64,000 nucleotides of DNA. Source: Prevotella sp. Lineage in GTDB: Bacteria > Bacteroidota > Bacteroidia > Bacteroidales > Bacteroidaceae. Positions 14,433 to 58,700 of the stretch are shown piece by piece (the first letter of the stretch is position 1; every line of letters begins with the position of its first letter). Both the position numbers and the translations under genes were made by a program. The notes below the pieces were generated by a model. That model saw only the letters and a program-made list of their open reading frames with translations, ran no database searches and was not told the origin of the DNA. The stretch is taken from assembly GCA_016281055.1 (NCBI GenBank), contig JAEEHW010000085.1:15203-79202 (forward strand), given 5' to 3'.

Positions 14433-15641
14433 ATGATAAAGACTAAACACATACTTATGGTGAGTGTCGCCGCCCTCATGACGGCATGTTCCAGCGACGA
14501 ACTGGCGCTGACACTTCCCGACGGTTACGATGAGATAAATTTCACCGTAGGCAATGGTACCGCTAACCTTACTCGTACAGAGGGTTACCTGCCGTATGAC
14601 TATGACCGTGACCCGCACAGCATGAGTGTATTCGGATGGTACAACCTGAGTGCGGAAAATATGGTGAAGCCAGCCAACACGATGTTCAACAATGTTGAGG
14701 TTACGGCAGGACGTGATGATGAGAGTGGTCTTGTGTCTTGGACATACGTCAACAAGAAATATTGGTTTGACTATGCTGCTTATTCGTCATTCGATTTCTT
14801 TGGTTGCATGCCTTACGATGCATCTGCATCTCTTGTATCAGGAGCAGCGGTTGGTAATGCCCAGAGCTATGAACTCTCCATGGATGTTGAGTTTGCAGAA
14901 GGTGCAGCGTTCTCACCTGTTGAAACTGCGCTTATGTGTGCTCTGCCAGAGCATAAGAGGTCTGCAGAGGGTGTCATTCCGTTCAAGATGGATCAGACGC
15001 TCACAGGTTACACTCTCGTGTTCCAGCTTGGTGAGCAGATGGATGCCTTGCGTGATTTCATTGTCAAGGAGGTAAAGGTATATGGTAACTCTTTGGCACA
15101 TAGTGGCCATGTGTCTCGCACCTATACCTATGATGGTGACGAAGGAGTATGGAGTGCCGGAAATATCACATGGACTGTAACTCAAGATGACTATACCGAT
15201 ATCCCAAGCACCACCGATGTGGTTATACCATATAAGAATAATTCAAATGATGTGGCAGACCTCGTGCCGTATTATACCGATCCTGTAGCGGAAGTTGGTA
15301 ATACACCGGCAAAGCCAGGCACCATGCGTGTTACCAACGTGCCTGTACAGTGGGGCAATGCCATATATGTGATACCTGTGGCAGGATTCAATCCTACATT
15401 CCAGGTGAAGTATGACGTTGTAGTGCAGGATGAGGAAGGTCATGACATCATTACACGTCATGATGTTGTCAGCACCATACAGTTCAACCCTGACTTCTTC
15501 AAGCGTCTTACCAAGAATGCAGAGGAGAGTCCTGTAAAGATGGGTTACACAAGACCAATCAACATAAAGATTGTGCCTGATCACCTCTACGTCCTCGCCG
15601 ATGCCGACCAGACATTCGGTTACATGCCAGTGTCAGACTGA
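14433..15641 (+). CDS. fimbrillin-family-like lipoprotein (type V pilin-like)
   Basis: Lipobox AALMTAC|SSDE followed by EINFTVGNGTANLTRTEG, a typical fimbrillin start. Later comes IPFKMDQTLTGYTLVFQLG...VKEVKVYGN. Confidence 0.55.
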   Translation: MIKTKHILMVSVAALMTACSSDELALTLPDGYDEINFTVGNGTANLTRTEGYLPYDYDRDPHSMSVFGWYNLSAENMVKPANTMFNNVEVTAGRDDESGLVSWTYVNKKYWFDYAAYSSFDFFGCMPYDASASLVSGAAVGNAQSYELSMDVEFAEGAAFSPVETALMCALPEHKRSAEGVIPFKMDQTLTGYTLVFQLGEQMDALRDFIVKEVKVYGNSLAHSGHVSRTYTYDGDEGVWSAGNITWTVTQDDYTDIPSTTDVVIPYKNNSNDVADLVPYYTDPVAEVGNTPAKPGTMRVTNVPVQWGNAIYVIPVAGFNPTFQVKYDVVVQDEEGHDIITRHDVVSTIQFNPDFFKRLTKNAEESPVKMGYTRPINIKIVPDHLYVLADADQTFGYMPVSD

Positions 15642-27544: not shown

Positions 27545-27591
27545 GAAAGTGGTTATATAAGGCTATGTAATAGCAGCCACGTTACTGTATA

Positions 27592-27637
27592 AAAAGCATT
27601 CATATTACGGTGTAAAATCTGTAATATGAATGCTTTT
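27592..27637 (+). terminator. hairpin terminator after paralog 1
   Basis: Perfect 17-bp stem aaaagcattcatattac / gtaatatgaatgctttt with a 12-nt loop, followed by gttatagcccttttt. The stem sequence is related to the GTAAAAGCATAG..TATTAC units of the 95-bp element. Confidence 0.7.
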
Positions 27638-27655
27638 GTTATAGCCCTTTTTGGG

Positions 27656-27798: not shown

Positions 27799-27806
27799 TA
27801 CCTTTG
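27799..27806 (+). promoter_or_regulatory. Bacteroidota -7 box TACCTTTG for paralog 2
   Basis: Read in attattacctttgcaga, 35 nt upstream of ATG 27842. Confidence 0.45.
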
Positions 27807-27841: not shown

Positions 27842-30800
27842 ATGTATTCAATAGGCAAATTGTTAAGAGTAAAAGGATTAGAAGAGAAGTATTTTTGTGT
27901 TTCAACGAAAGGGCGTGCGTATAGTATGCTCTTGTTGTCGTTGTATCTTGTTTTTGACTGTTTGGTAGCCTCAGCACAGGTTGTTCAGCCTGTTTCTCCT
28001 ATGTATGATTTCAGGAGCTGGAGCGCAACCACAATCAGTAATCTTCAGGCTGTGGCGTTGGCAAACGATGATGCGAACATTACGTCAGACACTCCGTGGT
28101 CAACATCGGAAAGTGCTACGCCAGGTGTGACATCAGAAACAAACGACGGGCATGGTTTTTATAATCATGCTGTAGTGACAGATGCGGCTCTTGCGGCTAA
28201 TGGCACGGCAGTAACTGAGGTGGCAGGACTGACGGTGAATGCTCCTTCACATGGTATTGGCATTATTAATGACATTGCTTCCACATCTCTTGGTGATTAT
28301 GCTAATAGTAGTTATTTGTGGTTGATGAATAAAACTACTTATGTTGTAATTCCAAATGTGCTATGTGGTGCAACAATAACTGTGGGCGTGGAGAGCCATA
28401 ATCCCAGTAAGGGACGTGGTGTAGAAGCATTTTACAAGGATGCCAATGGTGAATGGCAGTCAATAGGGAAATACACGAGTAAAGTATTTGCGAATAAAAC
28501 GTTTGACATACCTGTCGTACCTGGACTTACTTCAACGGAGGTGAAGTTGCAGGCCACGGACGGTATGCACCTTTATTATATTGATGCCCAGATAAACGGC
28601 ATGAAAGTGCTGACAAATTCTCTGAACCTGACAACAGGTGACACCCGTACCCTTGTTGACGGTACAGACTATGAGAACCGCAGTGGAGCAGCCATAACAT
28701 TCAGTACTGGTAACGTGGATGTTGCGACTGTTGATGCCAACGGTGTCATCACTGCTGTCGGAGTGGGAGAGACAACGATAACCCTCAGTCAGCCTGCCTC
28801 AGGTGACTACGCAGCCTCTACCCAGACCATAGCAGTATCGGTAATCAGTACCAATGTGAACCCTACGTTCACTACAAACCTGAATGCAACATATAGTGTG
28901 CTGCAGGGACGTACCGTCTGCATGAAGGTGGATATGATAGACGGTGACACCTATCAGTGGTACACCTGTACTGACATAGATGGTGAGACGGGTAAGACAG
29001 CCATCGAAAACGCAACATCCAATACATACAATATACCAGATGAGTGGCCAAACGGCGTGTACTATGTATATTGTCTTGCCACCAACAGCGAGAACGGCAA
29101 CTATACAAGGTCGAATGTCGCTACGGTTACGGTGTCGCCAATGACACATACCTTTGACTTTACGTCATTATCGGCGCAGACGCTGGCTAATATGGCAGCA
29201 GATAATGTGAACTGGACACCGTATGAGAAAGGAACCCAGACAGCAGGCGCCAATGATGACATGGGTTATTATACTGCAAATGCCATGACAGACTTCAGCC
29301 TGTTGTCGGCAAATGGGGAGAACCTGAGTGAGACATATCCTCTGTTGTTTGCCGCCAAGGGTAAGAGCCTTGCATTCGGTTTTATGTATGACATGCCGAC
29401 TGCTGCTATCAGTGGCGCAACACAGTATTACAACGGTTCAGGCATGTTATGGCTGACGTCTGGAGGAAATTCTTCCATTGTCATTCCAAACGTAAAGTGT
29501 GGTTCCATATTGAAGATTGGTCTGGAGAGTCATAAGAACTCAGACGGCCGTGGTGTGACGTTGTATTATGGTTCTAACAACAACAATACCTGGACCAAGG
29601 GAGATGCATACAAGCCGATGCTGTTTACAGAATATGAAATCACCGTTCCGGGAACTGATGAAGTTACGGATCTGAAACTGGAAGCCACCAGTGGTACCCA
29701 CATCTATTACCTTGATGTGGATATGCAGGGATTCAGGCTCCTCAGCGATACCAAGTTGATGGAACAGGGTGAGGAATATACGCTTGTGGAAAATACAGAC
29801 TATGCCAAGTTAGGCAGTGATGCAGTTGTGAAGGCTATCTCCTCAAGTGACGAAACCGTTGCCACTGTTGACGAAAACGGTAAGATTACAGCCGTTGGCA
29901 TTGGTACGGCAGTCATTAGCGTAAAGCAGGAGAAGGAAGGTGTGTATAGCGAGACTATACTCGAGCTTACGCTCAACGTAAAGAAACTTTATACAGTAAC
30001 ATACGACAAGGGAAGCGACAGTGCAGTGAAAGGCCAGGCACTTGGCGCAGTACGTTATGAAGAGAATGCCGAGATAAAACTGCCATCGCCAAACCGTCTT
30101 ATGTATAAGGACGGCTTCACCATGACAGGCTGGAGCGATGGACAGAATACATACGTCTTTGCTGATGACTATACAGTGACGCACAATGTAAATATGGTGC
30201 CGGTATTCACTGCCAACACCACAGGCAAGACATTGTCGGCACTCGCTAATGCTGAGACAGTGACATGGCAGTTCGGCCGTACCAACGGTGCACCATCAAT
30301 GGATTGGAATGCAGCTTCGGCACAGCCAGGTTACCTTGTTGCACAATGCAATGTGAATGGAGAGACACAGGATGTAACGCTGAAAATCAATACCCAGGCA
30401 GAAGGCGCAGGATTTACAAATGCAGAACGCGCAGACAAGGCCGATGCACAGGTAGGCGATCACACGGTGTTCACCATCCCTGCTGCAGAGCACATGCAGA
30501 TAACAATCAACAACGTCAGCGGTGCTGCACCGGCAGCGACCATCTCTGCAACAGGCTTGGAAGCAACAGAGATGACGTGGAATTCATCTGCCAAGACTCT
30601 TACATATACATACGACGGCAATGCTTCGGAAGTAATCATTGACGTTGCTGCTGTTGAATTCCTCGATGGCATTACGGTGAAGTATCCCCGTCCGTCAGAC
30701 TTCGCTATTGTGGAGAATGCCGGAACGCTTGACATGACAGAGAGTGAGAAGCATACACTGACAATAGATGCAGACTATGTCACATCGTCTGACGGTGCTA

Positions 30801-33800
30801 TGACCTATACGTCGAGCAATGATGAAGTGGCAACGGTTACTGCTTCTGGTGAGATAGTTGCCAGAGGTGCAGGTACGGCAGTCATCACTGTCAAGCAGGC
30901 CGCTACCAGCGACTGCTGCAAGGGTGAGATAAACTTTACCGTGAACGTGACCGCAACAACGCAGAATGTAGTGATTACAAATAACCTTCCTGCAACAGCA
31001 GAGGGATATATCAAGAGTACCAACATATTCAGCATTGCGGCAGACAATGCCTCACACTATCAGTGGTATGTATGCACCAATGCCAACAAGAGCGGTTCAA
31101 CAGCCATAGCAGGTGCTACCGAACCAGAATACAACTTCCGTCCGGCAACCGTTGGCGTACATTACATATATTGTGTTGCCAGCAACTCTAAGAACAGTGT
31201 AGCATCTGTTGTCTGCAAGGTTACGGCAAACCGTAAGTTGCAGTGGACCTTTGCACAGACTGCAGAAGAGGTTGCGGCTATTCAGACAGCTATAGATGGT
31301 GGCAGCGACTATTGGGGAACATCCTCAAATGGCCGTTATGTGACGAATCACATATACACAGGTGAAGAGGTGATGATTGATGAAAGTACACCACTCCCAA
31401 TCATGGAAGGACTGCTTGTCACTGGATCATCTTCAAACCAGTTGCTCGTTGGTTCGCCGACCAATACGAACTACAACCGTCTGCAGTTGAATGCAGAATA
31501 CACGATAACCATTCCAGGCTGTAAGGGTGGTGATGAAATCAATATCGTCTGTGAGCAGGCATCCAACAAGACCTCTGTTACCAGAGAGCTCCATGTTTCT
31601 AATGCATACTGCGCTGACGGACTCGGCGACAATCACGACTACATACAGAATACCGAGCATCAGTCAACGTTCAAGTTCGTCATGCAGCGTGACGGTGACT
31701 GTAATATCACTGCTGAGAACTATGCAATACACTCCATCAGTATCATAGACGAGAACTACGTCAAGAAACGTTATGTGTATAGTGTGGTAGCAGTGGATTC
31801 GCTCAGTGGCGACACACTTGACTATGTGCTGCCTGTCACCACGGCATGGGAGGGTGACGTGGTCAGCGGTGTGGCTTACAGCTACTGGAAGCGCACAGCC
31901 GACAACCGTCTTGTTCAGCGTTCATCACAGAACAAGAACTTCCACATGAACTATGAGGTGAACCAGGACACCACATTCGTGATACGCTACAAAAACCTTG
32001 GCATAGACAAGGTGGTATATCTCTCCGAGGCAGAGAATATCAGTGGCGCCAAGCCTTGTGCCGGTTCTACAGTCGAGGCTCGTGCCTCTAATGCCGGTGC
32101 AGCATACTGCGATGCAGCCAGAGGCATAAAACTCACTACACTGTCACCCGGTCGCTATGCCATCAGGGTGGGAATACTCGATGCTAAGAAAGGCGGTGAG
32201 AATAAGCTGGCACTGTTGGCCGACAAGGACAGTATCAAGTTTGTCACCCCGGCAACCTCATCCACCAATCAGTTCTGCGAACTTGCAGACACCATTACTG
32301 TTGATGGCTTCACAGACATCATCTGGCCTAAGGGCGGTGACGATGACCTTGGATTCGATATCATAGCCATCTATGACGTCTCTCTGCCAAAGGCAGACAA
32401 GCCTGTTATCGAACTTGACAATGAAACAGCTACCATGACCATCACCACCGGTGACGACGAGGACGATGTGTACTATACCATCGACGGTACCACGCCAAGC
32501 AGCACCAATGGTACATATTATGATGGAACGCCAGTGCATCTGCCAACCAACTGTACCATCCGTGCGGTGGCTCTGCACAGTCAGAAGAAGCCATCAGACA
32601 TTGCTGACAAGATAACAGAGTTCGTTACATATAAGGTAAATGTTACGCCGTGGCCACGCACATTTGGTTTTGTTCAGGTTACTCCACAGTCAAGCAACAA
32701 TACCTACACCGTTGGCACAGAGGTTACTGCGCGTGCCGTTGCCAAGGCGGGCTATGGATTCAAGGGATGGTGTGCAACTACTGACGGTTCTATTGAGGAT
32801 GGTATGGAAGACCAGAAGCATACCTTTACCATGACTGCAGAGGATGTTGTGCTATATGCACAGTTTGCCGAGGGCGTGAAAGGAACCGTGCACTACGACC
32901 TGTCTGCTGCCAAGTGGTACACGTCGGAAGGCGAAGAAGCAGCACCACAGACAATAAATGGCGCATCCACATTCCCGACAGAGATAGTATCAACGTCAGT
33001 GATAGTTCCTTCAAACTATTCACTGTATGTTCCAGACTATACCCTGGCGTATTGGGAGGATTCCGAGAATAGGAAATATGAGTGTGGAGTAAACAAACTC
33101 TTCACAAATGACTTCAAAGAAGTGACATTGCACCCGGTATATCAGAATAATGCTGAAGCGGACATTCTTAGCGTCCGTACTACCCCAGTCGAGATAACAT
33201 GGGATTTCCGTACAGCTTATGGTGCACAGCCCGTCACTATGGAGAAGGGCACAGGCGAGGAGCGTTACTATACCACTCACGCCACGGTGTCAGGTCAGAC
33301 TGCTGCCGAGCAGATTGTCGATGTTCCTGTTGTGATAGCCGTAGGCACAGAAGAGGGTAGCTTCACCAACGAAGACATGGACACATGGTCATATATGACA
33401 CCAGGTACAAAGGTGATTGTACCGTCGGGTGCAGGTGCTAGGTTCACTCTCGCAACCTATGCACGCATCAGTGATACAGAATCAGGTACGAGAATCAACG
33501 GCAAACTGCCAGACAATATATATTCAGAGGAACTTGTGAAGAATGCTGATGGACATTATCTCTATACATGGCTTGTTGATGAGGAGACCCCGACAGCACA
33601 GCTCATTATCGGAGCAGACGACTATGCTTACTATGCATACCTCAAGGCAGAACTGAAGGCTGCAGCCTTAAAGACGTTGAACGTCACTTCAGAGAACAGT
33701 GCCAAGGGTACGGTGAAGATTGTCACTACCGGCGACGTAAAGGTGAGCGGCGGTCATGCTTTCACTAACGGAACGTATGTTACCGTTGCTGCCGCACGCA

Positions 33801-36800
33801 ACAGGTTCTATGAACTGGATTACTGGCTCGATGGAAATGGCAACAAGATATATCCAGACAATCACTGGGTAGATGCTGATAATCAGAGTCACAACACAGA
33901 GTTGAGTTCTCCATTCTCTATTGATAACATTACATACACTCGTGTAGATCAGGATACCATTAAGTTCCAGTTAGGCCAGAACCTCGATCTTCAGGCTGTA
34001 TTCAAGGATAAGAAGTCTTATTACATTGACTTCTCTGCAGGTGGACAGGCAGAGGGACTGCCGCCACTCCAGCAGCACGTAGAGGAGGGCGAGGCATTCA
34101 CTATGCCGCTCCACAACAACCGCCTCTATCTTGAGGGATACACTCTTGTTGACTATACAGATGCTTCAGGCAACCATTATAAGTTTGCCAACAGCTATGT
34201 GCCGACGAGCGACCTGCATCTCACACCAAACTTCAAGCGTAACAATCGCTCATTGGGTGATGTGACGGAAGCAACCACGTTGACGTGGCCGCTCACTACT
34301 GCGGGTAATGCGCCAGACCTGTATTACAACAAGTCGCAAGGCTTGACCGTCAATCAGCTGAAGTTTGTTGGCGACAGCATTGATGTGCCACTCTATATTG
34401 ACGGCAGTGCAGGTGCACTCAGTAACCAGGACAACTCTGCTTACTGCGTAATCAGTGCCGGTTGTGTGCTCACCATGCCGACATCAAAGAACTGTGTAAT
34501 CAATATCAATTCAATAAATGGAGTATTCCAGAATACAGTGATAGCTGGTGCAACGAGCCTGCGCAATACAGCATACAGTTTGGCATACGGTGCTACTGCA
34601 TCGCCGATGGTGACATACACCGGCGAGGCTGCATCACAGGATATCTTGATGAAGGAGTCACGTCGTTGCACAGATGTCAGTGTTACCTATATGCCTATCG
34701 ACAGACCAGAGTTGTCGAAGGTTACATACGGAAGCACAGATCTGACAGCAGTACAGTTGGCTACACTGAAGTCTGTCGGCGAGATAGGCGGCATCAGTTG
34801 TGCAGCATCATACGATGCAGAGACACTGACCACTGTTAGTGCCACTGTAACCAATGGCAGTGTAGAGATTGCGCAGCCAACAGCCGCTAACCCTGTGGCA
34901 CAGATTACGCTGAAGACCGCAGGCGGTGTTGTGGCAGATGTATATACCATCTCATTCGTTGTAACCGACAAGACGGCTCCTACTGCACAGTCGGCAACAG
35001 TGTCAGGCAACGCTGCGTCGCTCAATGGTTCTACAACCGTCAGCGGGGTAGGGGAGAACGGTGTCATTGCTATCACCTTCGACCATTACATGAACGATGT
35101 CACCCTTGCAAGCACGACAGGCTTGGGGCAGGCACTTGTGGGTAAGGCCGATGGTAAGACATTGAAATTTACATACTGGAACCTCATAGCAGGCCAGACA
35201 TATACGCTTACCATTCCTGCACAGACATTGAGCGATACATACGGCACATCGGTAGCTGGCAGTATCGTGGTGAAATTCACACCGGAGGAAAAGAGTAATC
35301 CGCAGCCAAAACTGTTTGACTTCGTTGTCACTCACAAGCGTAGTTGGGATTGTGAGACACAGACAGAAGGAGAACTTGTGCAGACTGTCAGCAATGATGT
35401 CATTGCCAACCTTGATAAACTGAACATAAGGTATGGCACCATCGACGAGGCTACGGAGGCTGCCAATGCCGCTTCTGGCTCAGAGCGTTTCTATATCTTC
35501 GTACCTGACGGAGAATATTGCATGAAGGGTAACAGCAAGGGCGTGCTCACAGGAACATACAACGATACCAAACTCGGAAACAACCAGGGTCTGGTGGTCG
35601 AGAACTACTATAACGGCCGTACGTTCATCAACCGTGACAATGTCTCTATTATCGGACAGAGCCAGAATCGTACGGTGTTGTACAATGAGCCATACATATA
35701 CGGTATAAGCTATACGTCAACCCTTGAGGTACGCAGTAAGAAGAAAGACTGCTACTTCCAGGACTTTACTGTGGACAACCGTTTCTCAAAGTACCAAGTT
35801 GACCGTGGCGATGCAAACCCGACAGGCCAGGCTGTTGCCGTATATGACCGAGGCATACACTCCGTATGGAAGAACGTCAGCATGAAGGGTTATCAGGATA
35901 CCTACGCTTCTGCAGCCAACTCCAGTGGCTTCAATGTGGACAAGGGACAGGTAACACCAAACTGTTTCCATACCTACCGTTACTATGAGGATTGTCAGGT
36001 ATGGGGTACAGTTGACTTCCTCTGCGGTGGTGGCGACGACTGGTGGGAGCGTCCTACCTTCGTACTCCGCAAGCGTGCTACGGCAAACAATATTGTGGCT
36101 CCACGCCATTTCCATCCAAGCGTTACACAGTATTGCACAGGTGCAGACTATCTCTTCACAGAGAAATGGGGCTATGTGTTCAATAATGCCAAGGTGAAGG
36201 CAGAGAGCGAGGCCGCTTACAATGTGCAGAACGGTAAGTTCACACTTGGACGTCCGTGGGCATACTCTCCAACATGCACATTCCTCAACACCGACTTCAG
36301 TGTCAAGCCTGCCGATGTAGGATGGAGTAACATGTCTGGTACGCTTGTGATACGTATGCATGAATACAGCTCAACGCTCAATGGTCTGCAGATGGATCTC
36401 ACCAAGCGTACGCTGCGTGCATCAACACCAGCCGCTGGTTCTGATGACTGCATACTCACGGCAGAACAGGCAGCACAGTACACTATGCACAACGTGCTCG
36501 GTGGCGACGATGCTTACGATCCTACCATATACACCAAGCAGATATCTATGGAGGATGCTATCGTCAAGAACAGCACCAACGACAACGGTGACTGTACCAT
36601 AACATGGAATCCGGTTGATGATGCACTCTGTTATTTCATCTTCCGTATTGACGAGGCAACGGGTGATACATTGTTATACACTCTCTCCACAGGCGCTTCG
36701 TTCAAACCTGCAGATAATCAGGCAGGCAAACGCTTTGTGATACGTGCTGCCAATGAGCGTGGAGGACTGGGTGCACCGTCGCGTGCAATCGTGTATATGC

Positions 36801-37468
36801 CGCTTGAGTCCTTCTCTGTAACAGTCAAGGAGGTCGGTGCAGTTTCAGGTAAGGGCTGGAGTACAGTTTGTCTGCCTGTTGACGCTACATTCACACAGAG
36901 TAGCGACATTACCGTATATGCGGCCGTTTCTGTTGACAACACCACCCTGACGCTCAAGAAGGTGACAACTCAGGGATTAAAGGCAGGACGTGGATACATC
37001 ATATACGCCACTGCGCCTGATACATACATCTTCAAGGGTACTTACAATGCGGTTACACCAATATATGGCAACATATATTCTGTACTCGATGGTAACCCTG
37101 AAAATCATGCTGTCAGCGTGGGTATGCTTAACATCTATACGCTTGCATACAAGTCGGAGATAAGCAGTCAGGTGGGCTTCTACAAGTTCGTGGGTAGTCA
37201 GATACCGGCTCGCAAGGCATACCTCACCAGCGACTACCTTGCAAGTCAGGGCTTCTCTCTCAATGATGCCGGAGCAAAGGGACTCAATGTGGTATTCCTT
37301 GACGATGATGAAGACATAGATGGGGATGCTACCGATGTGCAGGGTGTGAATGAGGATGCAGACAGCGATGCTGAAACGGTATATGACCTCTCTGGTAAGG
37401 CTGTGGAACGCTCACAGATGCATAAGGGACAGATATATATCGTCAATGGCGAGAAGAAAATGTGGTAA
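27842..37468 (+). CDS. giant modular secreted surface protein, paralog 2 (3208 aa), with an intact CE8 pectinesterase-like module and a T9SS-CTD-like tail
   Basis: ORF track. The signal MLLLSLYLVFDCLVASAQ follows a 28-aa extension. There are three Big_2-like modules (e.g. LTTGDTRTLVDGTDY..VATVDANGVITAVGVGETTITLSQ). Ig-like modules are present (DTYQWY..VYYVYCLATNSENG; SHYQWY..HYIYCVASNS). Also present are InlB-B-repeat-like modules, a CHB_HEX_C-like module (DVYYTIDGTTPS) and a divergent B-repeat (VTARAVAKAGYGFKGW). Confidence 0.9.
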   Translation: MYSIGKLLRVKGLEEKYFCVSTKGRAYSMLLLSLYLVFDCLVASAQVVQPVSPMYDFRSWSATTISNLQAVALANDDANITSDTPWSTSESATPGVTSETNDGHGFYNHAVVTDAALAANGTAVTEVAGLTVNAPSHGIGIINDIASTSLGDYANSSYLWLMNKTTYVVIPNVLCGATITVGVESHNPSKGRGVEAFYKDANGEWQSIGKYTSKVFANKTFDIPVVPGLTSTEVKLQATDGMHLYYIDAQINGMKVLTNSLNLTTGDTRTLVDGTDYENRSGAAITFSTGNVDVATVDANGVITAVGVGETTITLSQPASGDYAASTQTIAVSVISTNVNPTFTTNLNATYSVLQGRTVCMKVDMIDGDTYQWYTCTDIDGETGKTAIENATSNTYNIPDEWPNGVYYVYCLATNSENGNYTRSNVATVTVSPMTHTFDFTSLSAQTLANMAADNVNWTPYEKGTQTAGANDDMGYYTANAMTDFSLLSANGENLSETYPLLFAAKGKSLAFGFMYDMPTAAISGATQYYNGSGMLWLTSGGNSSIVIPNVKCGSILKIGLESHKNSDGRGVTLYYGSNNNNTWTKGDAYKPMLFTEYEITVPGTDEVTDLKLEATSGTHIYYLDVDMQGFRLLSDTKLMEQGEEYTLVENTDYAKLGSDAVVKAISSSDETVATVDENGKITAVGIGTAVISVKQEKEGVYSETILELTLNVKKLYTVTYDKGSDSAVKGQALGAVRYEENAEIKLPSPNRLMYKDGFTMTGWSDGQNTYVFADDYTVTHNVNMVPVFTANTTGKTLSALANAETVTWQFGRTNGAPSMDWNAASAQPGYLVAQCNVNGETQDVTLKINTQAEGAGFTNAERADKADAQVGDHTVFTIPAAEHMQITINNVSGAAPAATISATGLEATEMTWNSSAKTLTYTYDGNASEVIIDVAAVEFLDGITVKYPRPSDFAIVENAGTLDMTESEKHTLTIDADYVTSSDGAMTYTSSNDEVATVTASGEIVARGAGTAVITVKQAATSDCCKGEINFTVNVTATTQNVVITNNLPATAEGYIKSTNIFSIAADNASHYQWYVCTNANKSGSTAIAGATEPEYNFRPATVGVHYIYCVASNSKNSVASVVCKVTANRKLQWTFAQTAEEVAAIQTAIDGGSDYWGTSSNGRYVTNHIYTGEEVMIDESTPLPIMEGLLVTGSSSNQLLVGSPTNTNYNRLQLNAEYTITIPGCKGGDEINIVCEQASNKTSVTRELHVSNAYCADGLGDNHDYIQNTEHQSTFKFVMQRDGDCNITAENYAIHSISIIDENYVKKRYVYSVVAVDSLSGDTLDYVLPVTTAWEGDVVSGVAYSYWKRTADNRLVQRSSQNKNFHMNYEVNQDTTFVIRYKNLGIDKVVYLSEAENISGAKPCAGSTVEARASNAGAAYCDAARGIKLTTLSPGRYAIRVGILDAKKGGENKLALLADKDSIKFVTPATSSTNQFCELADTITVDGFTDIIWPKGGDDDLGFDIIAIYDVSLPKADKPVIELDNETATMTITTGDDEDDVYYTIDGTTPSSTNGTYYDGTPVHLPTNCTIRAVALHSQKKPSDIADKITEFVTYKVNVTPWPRTFGFVQVTPQSSNNTYTVGTEVTARAVAKAGYGFKGWCATTDGSIEDGMEDQKHTFTMTAEDVVLYAQFAEGVKGTVHYDLSAAKWYTSEGEEAAPQTINGASTFPTEIVSTSVIVPSNYSLYVPDYTLAYWEDSENRKYECGVNKLFTNDFKEVTLHPVYQNNAEADILSVRTTPVEITWDFRTAYGAQPVTMEKGTGEERYYTTHATVSGQTAAEQIVDVPVVIAVGTEEGSFTNEDMDTWSYMTPGTKVIVPSGAGARFTLATYARISDTESGTRINGKLPDNIYSEELVKNADGHYLYTWLVDEETPTAQLIIGADDYAYYAYLKAELKAAALKTLNVTSENSAKGTVKIVTTGDVKVSGGHAFTNGTYVTVAAARNRFYELDYWLDGNGNKIYPDNHWVDADNQSHNTELSSPFSIDNITYTRVDQDTIKFQLGQNLDLQAVFKDKKSYYIDFSAGGQAEGLPPLQQHVEEGEAFTMPLHNNRLYLEGYTLVDYTDASGNHYKFANSYVPTSDLHLTPNFKRNNRSLGDVTEATTLTWPLTTAGNAPDLYYNKSQGLTVNQLKFVGDSIDVPLYIDGSAGALSNQDNSAYCVISAGCVLTMPTSKNCVININSINGVFQNTVIAGATSLRNTAYSLAYGATASPMVTYTGEAASQDILMKESRRCTDVSVTYMPIDRPELSKVTYGSTDLTAVQLATLKSVGEIGGISCAASYDAETLTTVSATVTNGSVEIAQPTAANPVAQITLKTAGGVVADVYTISFVVTDKTAPTAQSATVSGNAASLNGSTTVSGVGENGVIAITFDHYMNDVTLASTTGLGQALVGKADGKTLKFTYWNLIAGQTYTLTIPAQTLSDTYGTSVAGSIVVKFTPEEKSNPQPKLFDFVVTHKRSWDCETQTEGELVQTVSNDVIANLDKLNIRYGTIDEATEAANAASGSERFYIFVPDGEYCMKGNSKGVLTGTYNDTKLGNNQGLVVENYYNGRTFINRDNVSIIGQSQNRTVLYNEPYIYGISYTSTLEVRSKKKDCYFQDFTVDNRFSKYQVDRGDANPTGQAVAVYDRGIHSVWKNVSMKGYQDTYASAANSSGFNVDKGQVTPNCFHTYRYYEDCQVWGTVDFLCGGGDDWWERPTFVLRKRATANNIVAPRHFHPSVTQYCTGADYLFTEKWGYVFNNAKVKAESEAAYNVQNGKFTLGRPWAYSPTCTFLNTDFSVKPADVGWSNMSGTLVIRMHEYSSTLNGLQMDLTKRTLRASTPAAGSDDCILTAEQAAQYTMHNVLGGDDAYDPTIYTKQISMEDAIVKNSTNDNGDCTITWNPVDDALCYFIFRIDEATGDTLLYTLSTGASFKPADNQAGKRFVIRAANERGGLGAPSRAIVYMPLESFSVTVKEVGAVSGKGWSTVCLPVDATFTQSSDITVYAAVSVDNTTLTLKKVTTQGLKAGRGYIIYATAPDTYIFKGTYNAVTPIYGNIYSVLDGNPENHAVSVGMLNIYTLAYKSEISSQVGFYKFVGSQIPARKAYLTSDYLASQGFSLNDAGAKGLNVVFLDDDEDIDGDATDVQGVNEDADSDAETVYDLSGKAVERSQMHKGQIYIVNGEKKMW
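35310..36560 (+). other. CE8 pectinesterase-like module with the full catalytic motif set
   Basis: GQAVAVYDRG; MKGYQDTY (QD at 35894-35899); WGTVDFLCGG (D at 36014-36016); FTLGRPWAY (R at 36251-36253, W at 36257-36259). Order and spacing match the CE8 family pattern QAVAL / GxQDTL / GxVDFIFG / LGRPW. Confidence 0.7.
37325..37465 (+). other. T9SS C-terminal sorting domain-like tail (paralog 2)
   Basis: DATDVQGVNEDADSDAETVYDLSGKAVERSQMHKGQIYIVNGEKKMW. Confidence 0.5.
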
Positions 37469-49247: not shown

Positions 49248-49342
49248 GGGCGTTGTAAAAGCATAGGTATTACACTGTAAAAGCATAGATATTAGGAGGT
49301 AAAAGCATAGGTATTACACCCTAATACCTATGCTTTTACAAT
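49248..49342. repeat. 95-bp mosaic hairpin element (copy B)
   Basis: gggcgttgtaaaagcataggtattacactgtaaaagcatagatattaggaggtaaaagcataggtattacaccctaatacctatgcttttacaat. It contains a perfect 18-bp stem, 49299-49316 against 49322-49339. It has the same length and the same termini (GGGCGTTGTAA ... ACCTATGCTTTTACAAT) as copy A at 11208-11302. Confidence 0.85.
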
Positions 49343-49360
49343 ACAGTATGAATGATGGTG

Positions 49361-49514
49361 TATTAAGAATTAAGATTTAAGAATTGTGCATTGTGCATTA
49401 TGAATTATGCATTATGAATTATGCATTGTGAATTATGCATTATGCATTATGAATTATAAATTGTGCATTGTGCATTGTGCATTATGCATTGTGAATTATG
49501 CATTATGAATTGCA
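49361..49514. repeat. heptanucleotide satellite, ~22 tandem units (TGCATTR / TGAATTA variants)
   Basis: tattaag aattaag atttaag aattgtg cattgtg cattatg aattatg cattatg aattatg cattgtg aattatg cattatg cattatg aattata aattgtg cattgtg cattgtg cattatg cattgtg aattatg cattatg aattgca. Like the 2913-3010 array, it is followed by aaatgcc. Confidence 0.9.
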
Positions 49515-49734: not shown

Positions 49735-52700
49735 ATGAAGAGAACTGACAGAATTCTTACAACCTTTAAGAGATTCTTTGTGCTGACAGTCATTGCGACA
49801 GTGGGCACTCTCTCTGCGTTTTCTCAATGGGATGGTAATACGCCTGGCTCTATTGCTGAGGCGGGTATTACTGGTACCGGAACAAACGGCGACCCTTACA
49901 TCATACGTGATGCAAAGGCCTTCGCTTATTTCGGTTCGGTAATGGCTGGCAACACCAACTATTGGGAAATTCCACAGGAAGTAGGGGAAATTGACCTCGG
50001 CAACAACGTATGGAAATACGGTGTGGCTGCTAGGATTAATGCTTCCTATTTTGCTGGACATTTCAATGGTAATGGAACGACCATCAAGAACTTCAAGTTG
50101 ACAAGCGCTGATAACTGTTGTAATACAGGCTTGTTCCTTGGTGTCAGCGGTACTGTGGAACGTCTTACCATAAGCAATGCTACCATGACCGATGGGAACA
50201 AGTATAACAATTGTAATTTTGGTATATTGTGTGCCTCGGTCAATAATGGTACAATATCGAAGTGTCAGGTTCTGAATAGTTCTATGACTTTCGACCACTC
50301 TGTTAGCGCATGGGGGTCTACTGTTTCTATAGGTGCCTTGGCTGGTAGCGTTACAGGTTCTGGTGTGATTACCGACAGTAAGGTGACGGGTACTACCATA
50401 ACTGTAGCAGGCGGTGCAAATGGTGCAGATGACTGTACGGGAACATTCCTCTTTGTGGGCGGTGTTGCTGGTAATGTTGCTTCCACCAGTAACCTCAATC
50501 GTTGCGGTGCAAGTGGCGTGAAAATCAATATGCCTATCAAGCGTGGTACCGGATGGAATAACGGTAGCTATGGTCAGGGCCATATTGCTGCCGGCGGTGT
50601 CGTAGGTAATGTAAAGCAGCCTTGTACGGGTATGCCGGAGAATCTTTGTGCATACAATTGTAAGATATACTGCCCAATGGGTTCTGTCGGTCCAGTAGCC
50701 GGTATGTTCCTGAAGGCTGGCGCTTGGACTGAATATGGTACTTCTGACCAGACTGTCAGTGATGACTATTCTGCTGAGAATGGCAATGTCAGTGCTGCCA
50801 ACAGAGAAAAGACATCGTCATGGATGTATAATGGATATATGCTGGGTCTCAACAGTGAGATACAGAGTCAGAATACTTTCTCAAGAAACTATTCTGCTTC
50901 ACCGACGACAGTTGACGGTATCGACTACCTTAATGTGGGTGATGCTGCTACCTCTTTGCCAAGGAAAAACAGAGTGGATAACAGCCAGCGTCAGTCACGT
51001 ACTGTGTTGTGGTACACACAAAACAATGGTAGCCAGGCTAACAATGCCGATAACCAGGGTATTATTCCAAGTTATAGTAATAGTAGCTGGAGTACTTTTA
51101 ATGCACCAGTCTATAGCTATTTCATGCAGGGCTACAACGTCGGTACATACGTTGAGAGTTCACAGGCAGAGGAATTCATCAATGGTTTGGCAAAGGTGGA
51201 CAAGCTTGCCATCATCAAACTCGTCGATTTGAACCGTGGTCAGCGTGGTAAAGGTGCACATAGTATCCAGGCTACTGTCACAGAGGGTACCAACCCTGTG
51301 ACACTTAAGTGGTATGTTGATGCTGCCGAGCAGACTGGAGTCACTGGCACAACATGTGAGGCGTCGCCGAAATATTCATCTACGGTAACGGTTACTTGTA
51401 TGGCATCAGACGGTGCTTCTGCAGTGCTCACCCTGCCAAGGGCTTATCTGCCGACATTAAACTCACCGCACATGACCGACGACAAGGGTTCTGCTGCTTC
51501 TCCTTACATGACTACGCAGAAGGGTACAGTCGTTGAAGACAACAATACGCGCGGTAAGGCAATAAACCCGTATGTCATCACAGATGAGGAAGAACTCAGG
51601 TTGTGGTCAGAGTTGTCACGCCTCTCTGGTACCATTGAGAATGGTATCGATGAGAATGGTAATCCGATAATGGATGACGCAGACCACTTCAATACATCAA
51701 ACTTCCTCCTTGAGACAAACGTGAAGTTTGATACGGAGAAGGCCGATGACTTGACTGGGTTGACGGAAAAAATGACGTTCAAGGATAAAAATGGCAAAAC
51801 CCTTAATGCTATTACATATGATAATACTCAGTACAGGGTACGCCATAAGTTCAATCCTGCATATCATTTCGAGCCTATATGCGGCTTCACCTCAGAGGAC
51901 ATCTATGATGCGAAGCATACATTCCGCGGAACCTTCGACGGACAGGCCCACACCATCAGTGGTATCCGTCAGGTATGGCGTGGCGGTACGCTCAATATGG
52001 CGTATTCTGAACGTGCAACGCAGAACTGGGGTCTCTTCGGCTGTATCGGTGGCGACAAGAGCCATCCGGCTGTAGTCAAGAACTTCATCATTGAGGATGC
52101 CAAGTTTGAGCATGATGTATATAATGGCTCGTTCATGTATGCAAGTGCAATGAACTGTAAGGCACGTTATGATGATACACGTGGTACCAGCGTTGCAGTA
52201 GGTGTAGTTGCCGGTATGGTGACCAACAACTCTACTGTGACCAACATTGATGTCAGAAAGAGCTCTATTTACGCATCATGTGTGGACTGGTATGTTTCTG
52301 TTAATGATTATTGCTTGATAGACCTCTCAGCTTCTAGGGGCGCATATCACCTTTGGGTGGGTGGTGCCATTGGTAGGACACAGGCTGCTTTCGATACGCA
52401 GCGTGGTGACATCGGCGGTAGCATCAGCATCAACAAGATTTCTGTTGATGTTGACCTTGACGTGTTCCCGGTTCGTGTTAAGGGAACAGGCTTTAACTAT
52501 GGCTTCGATAATCCTGACAATAGCTATTCCGCAAGATCAAAACGCTTCTTGGCAAACATCGGTGGTATCGTAGGTTCTATGTACAGCAGTGGTAACTGGT
52601 CATCACTGCCTTGGCCACAGCAGGCGTTCTTCACAGGTCAGATGCGTGGTATGTGTACCATTTCTGGTCCTATCTTCGGTTTCGTGAACTATGGTTCTAT

Positions 52701-55700
52701 GACTGAAGACATAACAACTGGACAGTCTGCACACCAGCACTGGATTGGTTATCCTGGTGCAATCAAGTCTGGCTACTATAACAATTACTTCCTGCGTCAC
52801 ACTCGTTCGGACGAGAATGTAGATGAGAATGGTAATGAAGCGGGTGGATTCTATACAAAATCTGATGATGTAACTGTTGAAGGAAAAGGACAGATGCGTA
52901 GCCATGCCACTGCAGGCATGATATGGGAGAATAAAGCCTCCAAGAATTCTAATAACGGTACAAGTACAAGTGCTTCCAACCAGTTACTGGTGGATGGTGG
53001 TCAGCATGGTGGCAATGATGGTAAGCTGTTCTATCTCGGTCCTATCACACCGACATCACCAAGCAGCCCGCTTGTTGATTGTGGTTACAATGGCTATGAC
53101 GGTGCTCGCTCCATCCTTAAGCATGAAGAGAATACCATATCTGGTAACGATGACCTCTCTGGACATTATCAGGGTATAAACCAGGGTATATGGAAAGATT
53201 GGACAAAGGAAGCTATTCAGGAAGGCGTAATTGACGAGTTCGACAATTTGCCTTATGAGGCAGAATATACATGGGCATGGGATGATGTGACTGGTCGTCC
53301 TATACTTACCTCGAAGAGTGCTGAGCATCTTGATGCCGACACCCTGCCTGGTACACATGCTCTGGAACTTCAGGCTACTCTTAAGGTTGAGAGTGCTGCG
53401 GAGGCATATACCTACGCATGGTATGACCTCTGCAACGAGACACTGGTTCAGGGTTTTAAGACTGCTGCTGCAGGTGGTGACAAACTCGTGCTTTCTGAAC
53501 AGAAAACGTATGACCGATTCTACTATGTAGTTGCAAAGAAGGGAACAGAAGGTGGTGATGACTATAAGTATTTCAGGTCTAAAATTGTTAAGGTTCCTGG
53601 CACACTTCAGCCGAATGACGTGACTGCTACGATAGAAGATAATAAAACAACTATTTCTGGTACTACTTATACAAGTCATCAGGAATATCTTGGTGTTAGA
53701 ATCTCAGAGAAGAACTATTATGCTTTGCCTGAGAGTATAAGAGTGAAGACACCGGCTGATTACTATCCGTGTAAGAATGCTGATGACTGTATGAACAAGT
53801 GGGTTCCTGACTATGAGGGATCACTTGCCCATATCACTTACAGCGAGAATGGATATGAATATGATGATGGTTTGAATGACTGGAATACAGACTATACTCC
53901 AAAACCTATATATGGTGATGTCCCATTGACCATGTTTTTTGAAAATGGTGTGGCAAGAACAACTAAGATTACCAACTGGGAAGCTATATGGAATGCATAC
54001 CAGGCTCATTTTAATAATCCTGGTACCGATAATGCAACTCCGAAGGATGCTCTGGCAGAAGAAATGCTTCTGAGAATTCCTGCCATATACTATAGTTATG
54101 CAGAGTTCATTGGCCTTGATGTACAGGGTGGTACTTATGATGCAACAAGTACTCCTAACTCTGGCTTCACATATTCATTCAATGGCGATGCTACCAATCC
54201 AAGAGCTGGTATGTCATACATACATCGTAATGTGACGAAGGCAGATTATGATGCTATGCCGGCAGGAGAGAAGACAGTGCCTGCAATAGCAAAGCACACC
54301 TTGCAAGTTACCTTGGATCCTACTGAGTCTTCTTTGCTGGCTCAGGGATATCAGGTTTCATATCAGTGGTATGTATTGGATGGCGATCCTATTGAGGGTG
54401 AGACACGTTCTTCTCTTGAAATAGAGAATGCTCCAGATATGGATCGTGGTGCATATACATGTAGGGTTGTTGTACTTGACAGACATAACTGTAATAATTT
54501 AGTTCTTCTTAACAAGGAATTGAGTGAGATGTGGGGTGTAGATTATGTCTATATCAACCCGTCGGATCTGATAATTCCATACAGTGACTCTAATGGTAGT
54601 GGTACTACTGGACCAGGTCTTGATACCAACGATGGTAAGTCTCCAGAAAAACCGGTGAAGACATGGCCTGCTGCTTATGCTCTGTTGACAGAAAATGGTA
54701 CATGGAATGAGAACCAGATTATCCTCATTGGTAAGAGTCCGGCTTCTGTAACAAAGGAGGGCTTTGGCCTCGGTACTCAGAATGGTAATGGTAACAGCAC
54801 CACAGGTATCTATGACGTATGGTATCAGCGTGCACAGAGCAAGTTCATGAACCGCAACGCTACGATTAGTAGTAAGCGTCAGACTGGTGCCAAGTTCCAG
54901 GGTGAGATAGAAATGGAGAACAGTGCTGGTAATGGTACTCAGCTCGCTCTCTTCGGTGATACTCGTTTTGAGAATATAACATTCAGTCATGAGTCTCGTG
55001 ATGGTGGTTACGGCATCATCGCATGTCAGTACTATAACCTCGAGATGGGTGACAGCATCAAGATGGTTAACTTCCCGTCTGCTTCTTCTGCTTCTGCAGA
55101 GGTAGGACCTCTGCCGGGAACGAAGATTGCCGACTTGCAGATCTTCGGTGGATGTAACAATGATGACCGCTTCCTCCAGATGCCGGGTTCTGTATCAAAC
55201 TTTGAGGCTAAGCAGTACATCCCTCATCCGGAAGGTTTCACCATTACTGTGAAGTCTGGCTTCTACAGTAACATCTGTGCTTCTGGTCGTCAGTCAACAG
55301 ATACTGACCTTAATGGTATCGTGGGTACTCCTAACCGTCCGGTTAAGTGTACGATTATTGTTGACATCAACCGTGGCTGCAATAATGCAAACATGAACTA
55401 TGGTAACAGCACCGCAAGTTACGATGTTGGTGCCGTGATGGCTGGTAACCACGAGGGTGCTCAGTATGGTGACGTCAATATCATCATCCGAAGCGGTATT
55501 ATCGGTCGTGTAACATCTGGTTCTCTTGGTAACAAGCGTAAATCAAAGACATTCGGTACTGATATGAATGCCGGATTTAAGGCTTACAAGAGTTACTATG
55601 GTACAAGGAATAATGGTGATAATCAGGATGTATATCAGCCATTTGATACATATTTTGGCAGATGTAACATCCTCGTTGACCCAGCGTCTTCTAAGATGAA

Positions 55701-58700
55701 TAAAGTGGCAGCTGATGTTAATGATCGTGTTGTCATCAGTGAGATCTATGGTGGCGCTCTCGGACGTCACATGGGTTCATATACGAACGCGGGTGTGTGT
55801 ATGTCAACATTCTATGGTAAGTCAAACATTACCATCAATGGTGGTACATTCGACCTTAACAGTCCGGAAGGCGATACAGAATGGACGGGAACTGCTGGCA
55901 CTGGTGACGGTAAGTATGGCTTGGCTGCATACTCTAATACGGTATATAATGTTAGCATAAATGGACAAAACAAGCCGTATTATAGAGCTCAGCCTGGTAT
56001 TTATGCTGCTGGTGCAGGTGGTTTCAACGGTATCGGTGGTGACGAACTGCATACCAACGACCTCCGTCTGCCTTATTGGGCTAATGCTGCAGAATATACA
56101 GAAAAAGGTGTCAAGTTATATAACTTTGCAGATCTTTCGGCAAAGGGTATAAAGGATCCACATCGTATCGTGAAGTATGGTGATTACAATGAGTACAAAC
56201 AGCATACTGGTGCTGACAAGGTTTATATTACTTGTCTTGACTCTATTGTCTATGATCCATCTCAGGGTAAGGATATAGAATATACTACACAAATTGACCC
56301 TGCAGAGACTTCAACGACGATAACTATCAACGGTGGTAAATTCTTCCCACGTTCATTGCCACAGGGCGCTGGTATTTTCGGTGCAGGTAATGGTTATGTA
56401 AACAACCAGTTGATTAATTTCGCAAATCAGGCTCCTAACCCGCTTGGTGGCTCATTGCTCGGTAAGCCAGGTACTACAGCCGTAGAGATGAATATCAATG
56501 GCGGTGAGTTCAACTGTGATATCTTCGGTGGTGGTCGTGGTAACGACATATACTATGCCGCAGGTCTTCGCTATTGGGGTAATGAAGGTAGTATTGGTGG
56601 AAGCGACTGGGCGCAGGGCGTTTATGCCAATCCTGGCACAGATTACGATTCATACGGTGTAACGAGAGACAACTACTCACGCAATGCCCGCGTGCTTGGT
56701 AACGTTGTGATGAACATCAACGGTGGTGTCTTCAAGCAGAACATCTATGGTTCTGGTTCTGGATCAAACATGGCTGGTTGTGAGGGCATGGCTGAGGTCA
56801 TTGGTTCTACAACTATCAACGTTGATTCTACTGCAGCTAAGATATATGGTAATATCTATGGTGGTGGTAACTATGCCAAGACACGTGTAAGCACTGAGGT
56901 CAACGTCAACAGTGGCTATGTATATGGTTCTGTATTCGGTGGCGGTAATCAGGCTACCGTTGGTACCTTGGGTACAAAGACTATATATTCGGCAGATGAA
57001 TATTACAGCTTGGCTGATAATGTATATACAGGTGAGGGAGCTTACACAAGAGATGAGGCCGAGGAGAAGGGTGTCATCAAGGATGCTTCTGGTGTTGAGC
57101 ACAATATAGGTGAACTTAAGCCAGGTGCAACCGGCACGCAGGTTCCTGCAGGTACTGGTCATTCATCAGTATATACTAAGACTGAGAAGGCATATATCTA
57201 TGGTGACATCTTCGGCGGTGGTAACAAGGCCGATGTCTGGGGTGACACTTATGTAGGTATGTCTGCCGGTCATATCGCTGGTAACATCTACGGTGGTGGT
57301 AACGGTGTATATGTCGATGCAAGCAACAATGCTCAGGCTAACGTTCATGGCTTCACAGAGGTGTTCCTCAATGGTTATACCGTGATGTGGGACTACATGT
57401 TCGACACAGAATCATGGGCTGCTAAGACTTATGATCAGCGTGTTGAGATGACAGAGGAAGATATACTGGATTCTTATCTTAAGTCATGGAGTAAAAACAA
57501 GGATCTCTTCGTAACGACAGAAACAGTCAACGGTAAGAGCGTTTCTAAGTGGTTCGACAGGTTCAGCATTGGTAAAACTGGTGACGCTAGGACCTATAAT
57601 GCACACAATATCTTCGGCGGCGGTAACATCTATTGTGATGTTGACAGCACGGCACGTGTTACTGTGACACGAGGCATGACACCGAAGGATCTGCTTGAGA
57701 CAGATGAGTGGAAGTGGTCATACTATGACAATAACACTCCTCACTTCTATGTATTCGGTGGTGGTAACGGTCCGCAAACAAATGTTAAGAATACCTACGT
57801 CAACGTCGGTATGGAGGGTGTGCTGACACAGGATGCTACTACTGACGAGGCTCTCGCTAAGCCTGCTAGCTACTTCATCGATGAGGATGGCAATCAGGTT
57901 ACTGCGGCAGGTGATGACAACCACTCTATCGGTATCTTCTCTAATGGTTACGGTATTGCAGGTTATACTGTGCTCGGTGTACTCGGTGGTGGTATGGAAG
58001 GACAGGTTAACAACGACACTGAAGTAACCATCGGTGGTAACACCTTCATACACCGTGTATATGGTGGTGGCTATGGTGATCGCTATCGTACCGTAAGCAA
58101 CAAGATGCCAGCGGCTACTACGCTCGGTTATGTGGGTAACAATACACACGTGACTGCAAATGGTGGTCTTATCTATGGTGATATCTTCGGTGGTGGTGCA
58201 CGCGGTGACGTAGGTAACGCTACTTGCGTAGAGGTGCTGCGCGACTGTAAGGTATATGGTTCTGTATACGGTGGCGGTGACGTGGCTAAGGTCAATGCTG
58301 TCAAGGCTAATACAGAGGAATATGCCACAGACACTGTTACTACTGTCGTAATCGGTGGTGGTAATGTGTTCCGCAACGTATTTGCTGGTGGTAGCCAGGG
58401 ACCTGTATATGGTTCTACACTTGTCAACATCGTTGACTCAACAATGTTTGGTAAGAAAGTTACTCCTTATATATATCACGACATCTATGGTGGTGGTGAG
58501 AAGGCCGACATCTATGGTAACACCAACGTCCTCGTCGAGGGCGGTAACATGGCCGGTGATATTTTCGGCGGTGGCCTCGGTATATATGTTGCAGGCAAGA
58601 ACGACTCTATCATCAGTGCTGACGTGCTGCAGCAGACTTATGTGACTGTCAACGGCGGTTCAATGCTCTGGAGTCAGAAGTGTGATGACTGGCAGCAAGG

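Follow-up and report, generated by a model that had tools for sequence, protein, structure and literature searches.

The 64,000-nucleotide stretch of Prevotella sp. DNA analysed here (contig JAEEHW010000085.1, positions 15,203 to 79,202 of the forward strand; the window in what follows) contains four long open reading frames (ORFs) arranged in tandem on the + strand, designated p1, p2, p3 and p4. The second of these encodes a protein of 3208 amino acids (aa) in which residues ~2490-2905 make up, on sequence grounds, a genuine CE8 domain whose predicted catalytic site is complete. The host of p2 is an uncultured rumen Prevotella. The reading we favour, with a probability of about 0.65, is that p2 is a giant modular cell-surface protein which carries a complete CE8 pectin methylesterase (PME), is displayed by means of a short C-terminal domain (CTD) of a type IX secretion system (T9SS) and acts in pectin de-esterification. 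The analysis adds three things: giant CE8 proteins of Prevotellaceae that together form a large family, a pair of pseudoenzyme and enzyme genes that has been conserved, and a likely short T9SS signal outside Prevotella intermedia. The identical p2 protein is called on five public contigs of up to 255 kb, and the members of its 90% cluster come from NCBI, ENA and JGI assemblies. Because of this recurrence p2 can be taken as a real gene; an assembly artefact is ruled out by the presence of identical or >90% identical proteins in several independent assemblies.

The CE8 module of p2 and its relatives

The gene and the elements of its CE8 module are as follows.
27842..37468, + strand: p2 gene, giant secreted protein with a CE8 module, 3208 aa (from the ORF list and its translation)
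35309..36556, + strand: CE8 pectin-methylesterase module, residues ~2490-2905 (PF01095, phmmer against the PDB, AF2, Foldseek)
From nt 35486, + strand: upstream segment RFYIFVPDGEY, residue 2549
From nt 35642, + strand: upstream segment VSIIGQS, residue 2601
35825..35848, + strand: GQAVAVYD, residue 2662, with the first Gln, subsite -1 (PemA Gln153)
35885..35905, + strand: KGYQDTY, residue 2682, with a Gln and the first catalytic Asp (PemA Gln177/Asp178)
36002..36031, + strand: WGTVDFLCGG, residue 2721, with the second catalytic Asp (PemA Asp199) and Cys in place of Phe202
36245..36259, + strand: LGRPW, residue 2802, with the catalytic Arg and the substrate-binding Trp (PemA Arg267/Trp269)

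An earlier note, made from the sequence alone, had proposed a CE8 module at 35310-36560 on the basis of the four motifs in canonical order and of the two segments upstream of them. Motifs and segments were all found in ORF 27842-37468 at the positions given above, and the proposed span takes in the whole module (residues ~2490-2906). Against Pfam family PF01095 p2 scored 41.6 bits, above the gathering score of 27 (E 8.5e-11, residues 2598-2888), and a phmmer search of the PDB returned six pectinesterases, the best being 8TNE at E 4e-13. Equivalence of active-site residues was judged by sequence alignment to solved structures, the roles of the PemA residues being those given in PMC10530356. In 8TNE and 1QJV the positions matched by the four motifs are those of the catalytic and binding residues, as the note had anticipated. 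D2686 (in YQDT), D2725 (VDF) and R2804 (GRPW) coincide with the triad of both structures, and the residues of subsites -1 and +1, Q2664, Q2685 and W2806, are all in place.

The AlphaFold2 (AF2) model of residues 2480-2900 had a mean predicted local distance difference test score (pLDDT) of 87.6 and a predicted template-modelling score (pTM) of 0.90. When this model was compared with the PDB by Foldseek, ranks 1-15 were all CE8 PMEs, with E down to 2.7e-15 and target-normalised TM in the range 0.50-0.79. Other families with a beta-helix appeared only at E>1e-3. The module is predicted to be a right-handed parallel beta-helix like that of the solved PMEs, and the full residue set ascribed to it (both Asp, both Gln, Arg and Trp) was borne out by the PF01095 match, the PDB alignment, the model and the Foldseek search taken together. 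Because of the Pfam score, the PDB matches, the model and the structural matches, the four-motif agreement in the p2 sequence is judged to be far beyond chance. With the NCBIfam equivalog model for PemA (NF041896) p2 reached 39.4 bits, below the cut-off of 700; on these scores it is a distant CE8 relative and not a PemA orthologue. None of the three outcomes that the earlier note had named as refuting its proposal was observed, whether in the HMM score, in the predicted fold or in the placement of the motifs, here by sequence alignment. As regards family, fold and catalytic residues there is good support for the assignment of p2 as an enzyme, and from its sequence we infer methylesterase activity.

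Among 1.84 billion representatives an exhaustive phmmer search picked out 801 relatives with E<=1e-3, of which 144 had E<=1e-30; counts of residues and lengths refer to the best 150 representative clusters of the 801. Fifty-seven of these are at least 2,000 aa long, 43 at least 3,000 aa and 10 at least 5,000 aa, with a maximum of 7,098 aa, and the CE8 module stands at the extreme C-terminus in 57 out of 57 listed relatives of at least 2,000 aa. Asp-Asp-Arg is kept in 132/150. Cys replaces PemA Phe202 (DF[IL]CG) in 120/150, and the position of the first Gln is occupied by Arg (67) or Val (36) more commonly than by Gln (29). In its residues p2 appears, if anything, more canonical than its own family. 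A word-indexed homologue search, which yielded 16 proteins for the CE8 module and 3 for the C-terminal 308 aa, missed the giant relatives.

A scan of one genome per species identified 27 loci in Prevotella, Prevotellaceae or Bacteroidales metagenome-assembled genomes (MAGs). Their sources were goat, sheep and buffalo fore-stomach and human gut, the latter comprising Hadza, UMGS, HGM and Ca. Segatella violae. The matching ORFs range from 1,434 to >4,053 aa, all end with CE8, Fn3, a beta-sandwich called domain Z and a short tail, and Asp-Asp-Arg is intact in 26 of the 27. Two buffalo Bacteroidales MAGs (L026 and L028) carry a shorter relative of 1434-1470 aa, in L026 a distant one, that scores 77 bits with PF01095. 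There it is the last gene after SusD-like, no-family and DUF4957 genes (L026:394-11278, L028:424-11287), a context of the polysaccharide utilisation locus (PUL) type and unlike that of the window. Fragments of the family have already been annotated automatically as 'pectinesterase family protein'. We found no published description of giant (3,000-7,000-aa) Prevotella CE8 proteins or of a dead/active pair.

In human-gut Prevotella, the ORF directly 5' of the giant CE8 gene (480-570 aa) showed a weak match to IS200-like Y1 transposases (E 2e-4 to 3e-5; ORFs at L008:2030-3751, L009:3199-4635 and L024:2684-4189).

Architecture of p2 and its predicted route to the surface

The remainder of p2 is composed of the following parts.
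27842..27979, + strand: predicted Sec-type signal peptide, ~residues 1-46, hydrophobic core MLLLSLYLVFDCLVASA followed by Q, with no lipobox Cys (read from the translation)
27980..34966, + strand: N-terminal array, ~2,330 aa (Pfam, internal repeats)
34967..35278, + strand: Big_5 (PF13205) Ig-like domain directly 5' of CE8 (Pfam, E 8.3e-08)
36542..36805, + strand: Fn3-like domain after CE8 (AF2 model, Foldseek matches to Fn3)
36806..37300, + strand: beta-sandwich domain Z (GKGWSTVCLP...GFYKFVG...KAYL; AF2 pLDDT mostly 80-93)
37301..37333, + strand: acidic linker, predicted disordered (pLDDT <50, model residues 257-277)
37334..37465, + strand: candidate short T9SS C-terminal signal, 44 aa (DVQGV...VYDLSGKAV...GQIYIVNGEKKMW)

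The flanks of the CE8 module had been described as Ig-like and B-repeat modules. Pfam and Foldseek identify Ig-like, Big_2, Big_5, Listeria-Bacteroides-repeat and Fn3 modules in them, and a signal peptide of the Sec type precedes the array. Two repeated units make up much of the array: the first consists of a ~200-aa module X without family, Big_2 and an Ig-like domain, the second of a Listeria-Bacteroides repeat and a module Y without family. CHB_HEX_C/Fn3_assoc and Flg_new_2 were also detected by Pfam. Neither X nor Y has a credible Pfam family (legume-lectin E 0.003, pullulanase N2 E 0.056), and their reading as carbohydrate-binding modules (CBMs) is for this reason a guess. Neither the 2,479-aa N-terminal part of p2 nor the N-terminal part of p1 had a sequence relative in the PDB, and no second catalytic domain, such as the lyase or hydrolase fusions of Butyrivibrio, was detected by Pfam in p2 or p3. 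The pairing of Big_5 with CE8 recurs in the relatives P0008 and P0016; PF13205 is a cell-surface-binding domain and among those most commonly associated with large multi-domain rumen PMEs (PMC7807696).

In the AF2 model of the C-terminus the acidic linker comes out disordered and leads into a small three-stranded tail. Domain Z has no match in Pfam or NCBIfam, and Foldseek with the C-terminal model returned mostly generic Fn3 matches which were uninformative on domain Z and the tail. In a metagenomic relative (P0002) a type I dockerin takes the place of domain Z and tail, which supports the view that this end of p2 may be a targeting module.

Short CTDs in P. intermedia are 40-55 aa long and fold as three strands behind a flexible linker (Ye et al. 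2025, PMC11969387). Their motifs are a T/(G,x)(I,V) cleavage site, a B motif (Y..G plus basic residues), a D motif (G.Y-I, 1-6 residues later) and a basic E motif, and both cleavage and glycan attachment have been shown by experiment (PMC11969387). Compared in this way, the 44-aa tail of p2, which is preceded by T and the acidic linker, fits the description motif by motif. The pattern T/DV ... VYDLSGK ... GQIYI ... EKKMW was kept in all 30 of the family tails aligned, which come from sequences otherwise 32-60% identical. Membership of the tail in the canonical T9SS CTD families was rejected, since four tests with NCBIfam and Pfam models gave no match.

T9SS export with C-terminal attachment is the most likely route for p2 on present sequence evidence. 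The earlier note had pictured a surface-anchored enzyme on a very long stalk. Surface anchoring of p2 is plausible, given the agreement of its final 44 aa with the short T9SS signal of Prevotella. The stalk is another matter: if p2 is anchored by its C-terminus, CE8 will be proximal to the cell and the N-terminal array of ~2,480 aa will point outward, so that the proposed geometry is probably inverted.

Short-CTD-like tails of 44 aa were seen not only in p2 (37334-37465) but also in p1 (27410-27541), in p3 (49070-49213) and in the scanned loci L002-L028. This suggests that short CTDs may be widespread in rumen and gut Prevotella, beyond P. intermedia.

Paralogues of p2 and genomic context

The other giant genes and their CE8 modules are listed here.
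16235-27544, + strand: p1, paralogue, 3769 aa
25367..26620, + strand: p1 CE8-like module, catalytic residues all lost (GGAPAFYD / AHEGTY / GTHWFIHD / LASPM; alignment)
37796-49216, + strand: p3, paralogue, 3806 aa
47069..48289, + strand: p3 CE8 module (PF01095, 39.8 bits; alignment)
49735..64000, + strand: p4, fourth giant ORF, without CE8, >4755 aa, extending past the end of the window
L005:3-2018, L006:3-2642 and L004:3-1589: dead p1 orthologues in three Prevotellaceae species

Alignment of the three C-termini showed p2 to be the intact copy. In p1 both catalytic Asp, Gln, Arg and Trp are lost; the protein has no Pfam match at E<=0.01 and scores only 35 bits with the NCBIfam PemA model. In p3 both Asp, Arg and Trp are kept, the first Gln is replaced by Ala (GAAVAVYD), and IARTW stands for LGRPW. 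The earlier note had missed both the loss of catalytic residues in p1 and the changes in p3.

The gene order p1-like, p2/p3-like, p4-like is kept in related species. The p1-like genes of L004, L005 and L006 are likewise catalytically dead and their downstream partners intact, and because p1 orthologues are dead in three other species, the dead/active pair of genes can be called conserved. Between species the dead CE8 module shows 47-54% identity, about as much as the domains on either side of it. CE8 is the best conserved part of the active lineage, with 59-68% identity as against 35-64% for the flanks. Our interpretation is that purifying selection acts on catalysis in p2-type genes and that p1-type genes would retain a folded, non-catalytic module. 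A p4-like gene is the downstream neighbour of the CE8 giants in L002, L003, L005 and L006 (43-53% identity).

Compared within the genome, p1, p2 and p3 agree to 59-81% in Fn3, domain Z and tail and less (51-65%) in CE8. Between species the order is inverted, CE8 being more alike than the C-terminal ~300 aa (e.g. 36542-37465). This suggests that the targeting end of the paralogues may be subject to gene conversion or concerted evolution.

The following elements lie between or beside the giant genes.
27799..27806, + strand: putative -7 promoter box of the Bacteroidetes type, TACCTTTG, 43 nt 5' of the p2 ATG (pattern search)
27585..27644, + strand: terminator-like hairpin with a 24-nt arm, after the p1 stop codon
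11798-13030: secreted protein of 410 aa, with a type I dockerin at its end after a Ser/Asn/Glu-rich low-complexity linker
13122-14378 and 14433-15641: two lipoproteins, which follow the dockerin protein directly 5' of the giants

The pattern search placed TAnnTTTG boxes 43 nt (p2) and 52 nt (p3) 5' of the start codons, and terminator-like hairpins occur 3' of both p1 and p3. The giant genes seem to be transcribed as separate units; for p2 this is suggested because of the hairpin after the p1 stop codon. The spacer between p3 and p4 (49254-49512) contains a 22-nt sequence repeated three times, with a perfect hairpin of 18-nt arms (49299-49339), and an AT-rich tandem array with a period of 7/21/35 nt (49358-49512).

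p4 begins with a Sec signal peptide. It has no credible Pfam family, Ig_3 matching only below threshold (17 vs 30 bits), nor did its sequence match any in the PDB. The genes next to the giants encode the lipoproteins and the dockerin protein, not carbohydrate-active enzymes (CAZymes). For the two lipoproteins no family and no PDB relative was found. A cellulosome-like link between the dockerin protein and the giants was considered and rejected, as no cohesin Pfam match was present in p1-p4. Housekeeping genes nearby in the window include purB, ribD/E/BA and a DUF1846 gene; no por or sov gene lies in these 64 kb.

Neither SusC nor SusD turned up in the scan of window ORFs, so that p2 has no adjacent susC/susD pair. 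The earlier note had made the same observation and had called the deployment of a CE8 enzyme without a PUL unusual. The observation holds, but the judgement does not, since the PME genes of rumen Prevotella are for the most part located outside PULs (Kelly et al. 2019, PMC7807696). Multimodular CAZymes that are linked to the T9SS and not to a PUL are also known in rumen Bacteroidetes (PMC5831590).

Interpretation and comparison with known systems

On the reading we favour, p2 would be exported by Sec and would cross the outer membrane through the T9SS by virtue of its 44-residue short C-terminal signal. It would probably be cleaved in the acidic linker and its new C-terminus joined to a surface glycan. 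The block of Big_5, CE8, Fn3 and domain Z would then adjoin the cell, and the ~2,300 residues of Ig-like and family-less beta-sandwich repeats, candidates for glycan binding or adhesion, would reach out to the plant cell wall. CE8 would use the usual Asp/Asp/Arg mechanism to hydrolyse homogalacturonan at its C6 methyl esters, giving methanol and a pectate open to lyases and hydrolases encoded elsewhere. p2 would be one gene of a conserved locus comprising a giant with a dead CE8 (p1), one or two with an active CE8 (p2, p3) and an unrelated giant (p4).

Several findings weigh against this reading. The CE8 scores of p2 are modest (~40 bits, 16-22% identity to solved PMEs). Its subsites differ from those of PemA in the family-wide exchange of Phe202 for Cys and in Tyr181, which is not conserved, and with several subsite residues unlike those of PemA the substrate preference of p2 is uncertain. 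The 64-kb window contains no pectate lyase, polygalacturonase or uronate-utilisation genes. No recognised CBM was found in the N-terminal repeats by Pfam or among PDB sequences. The models for canonical T9SS CTDs (TIGR04183, NF033707, TIGR04131 and PF18962) gave no match at E<=10 with the final 100 or 308 aa of p1-p3, and 12 family tails gave none with curated T9SS CTD models at E<=1.

It might be thought that p2 is mainly a giant adhesin, with CE8 as an accessory for pectin recognition or wall loosening, or as a pure binding module, and not as a nutritional enzyme; the dead p1 would be the lectin-like extreme. More than 75% of p2 indeed consists of Ig-like, Big_2, Listeria-Bacteroides-repeat and other beta-sandwich modules typical of adhesins. 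The dead modules of p1 and its orthologues in three species have been conserved as well as their flanks, no other pectinolytic gene is present in the window, and the neighbours are lipoproteins and a dockerin protein in place of CAZymes. We nevertheless think this rather unlikely, since in the active lineage the catalytic residues are retained almost throughout and no part is better conserved than CE8, which points to selection on catalysis; moreover, adhesion and enzymatic action are not mutually exclusive. About equally doubtful is the notion that p2 is secreted but not anchored to the cell, being free or on vesicles, or that its tail is no T9SS signal. The silence of the curated CTD models would fit it, and the dockerin of P0002 in place of domain Z and tail indicates that other modes of targeting exist. 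Against this stand the motif order, the spacing and the length (44 aa) of the tail, which are those of the experimentally cleaved CTDs of P. intermedia, and its conservation over 30 otherwise divergent sequences.

Less probable again is a CE8-fold esterase that acts on a non-pectin substrate, e.g. another methyl-esterified or acylated uronic-acid polymer, or that has no PME activity at all, as is the case for YbhC. The subfamily is divergent, with CE8 scores of only ~40 bits; Cys replaces Phe202 throughout the family, the first Gln is variable (R 67, V 36, Q 29 of 150), there are clade-specific insertions, and YbhC (3GRH) is among the structural matches. p2 however keeps all catalytic and -1/+1 core residues of a PME, unlike proteins of the YbhC type, its best structural matches are true PMEs, and the rumen is rich in pectin, with Prevotella as the dominant PME-encoding genus there. 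The display of an active pectin methylesterase remains the reading we prefer. A wider proposal, which we put forward very tentatively, is that the conserved Prevotellaceae locus, with its ancient dead/active CE8 pair and its unrelated partner of >4,700 aa, could be a PUL-independent, short-CTD-displayed apparatus for attachment to and de-esterification of plant walls, in which the dead CE8 would serve as a pectin lectin and the active one would remodel the bound surface.

Among the genera with PME genes in the rumen Prevotella is dominant, and its de-esterification of pectin is held to be the chief source of the methanol that feeds methylotrophic methanogens there (PMC7807696). In published surveys the stress has been on Prevotella enzymes of 324-330 aa and Butyrivibrio proteins of up to ~2,100-2,200 aa. 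Prevotella proteins of 2,000-7,000 aa with an intact CE8 would represent a further, distinct way of attacking pectin and attaching to plant particles at the cell surface, and giant CE8 proteins occur in ruminants as well as in human-gut Prevotella/Segatella. The active/dead pair offers a natural system for the study of pseudoenzyme function. What is understood of the action of CE8 enzymes is left unchanged by p2.

With PemA of Dickeya dadantii (1QJV/2NTP) and Pme8A of Butyrivibrio (8TNE) the CE8 module of p2 shares the beta-helix and the order Gln, Gln-Asp, Asp, Arg-x-Trp. These enzymes are single-domain proteins of 320-370 aa, whereas the domain of p2 occupies residues 2490-2905 of 3208 aa. 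It is 16-22% identical to them and differs by the change of Phe202 to Cys and by extra N-terminal and loop insertions. The CE8-fold lipoprotein YbhC of E. coli (3GRH), which lacks PME activity, is a precedent relevant to p1 and the dead orthologues; in contrast to YbhC, p2 keeps the full catalytic set of a PME, and p1 has lost it more completely and within a giant protein.

The PmeC5-type PMEs of Butyrivibrio fibrisolvens (2000-2200 aa; 9MM2; PMC12109409, PMC7807696) resemble p2 in being rumen proteins with a signal peptide and a CE8 domain set among presumed binding modules in a multidomain protein of very large size. They are however Gram-positive, borne on a megaplasmid, fused to a PL9 lyase and equipped with cell-wall-binding repeats, while the Prevotella giants have no second catalytic domain, other repeats, a T9SS-like tail and lengths of 3,000-7,000 aa. 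'Ca. Paraporphyromonas polyenzymogenes' (PMC5831590), a rumen member of the Bacteroidales, likewise has large modular CAZymes outside PULs with a C-terminal secretion signal. Those are GH5 and other glycosidases of at most ~1900 aa with canonical CTDs; p2 is a single esterase, much larger, with a short non-canonical tail. The closest parallel for the tail is the short-CTD cargo of P. intermedia (PMC11969387), with the same signal length, the same motifs and the same three-stranded fold after a flexible linker. That cargo is known from the oral species only and consists of proteases, leucine-rich-repeat proteins and similar, whereas here the likely signal is found on giant CE8 proteins of rumen and gut Prevotella.

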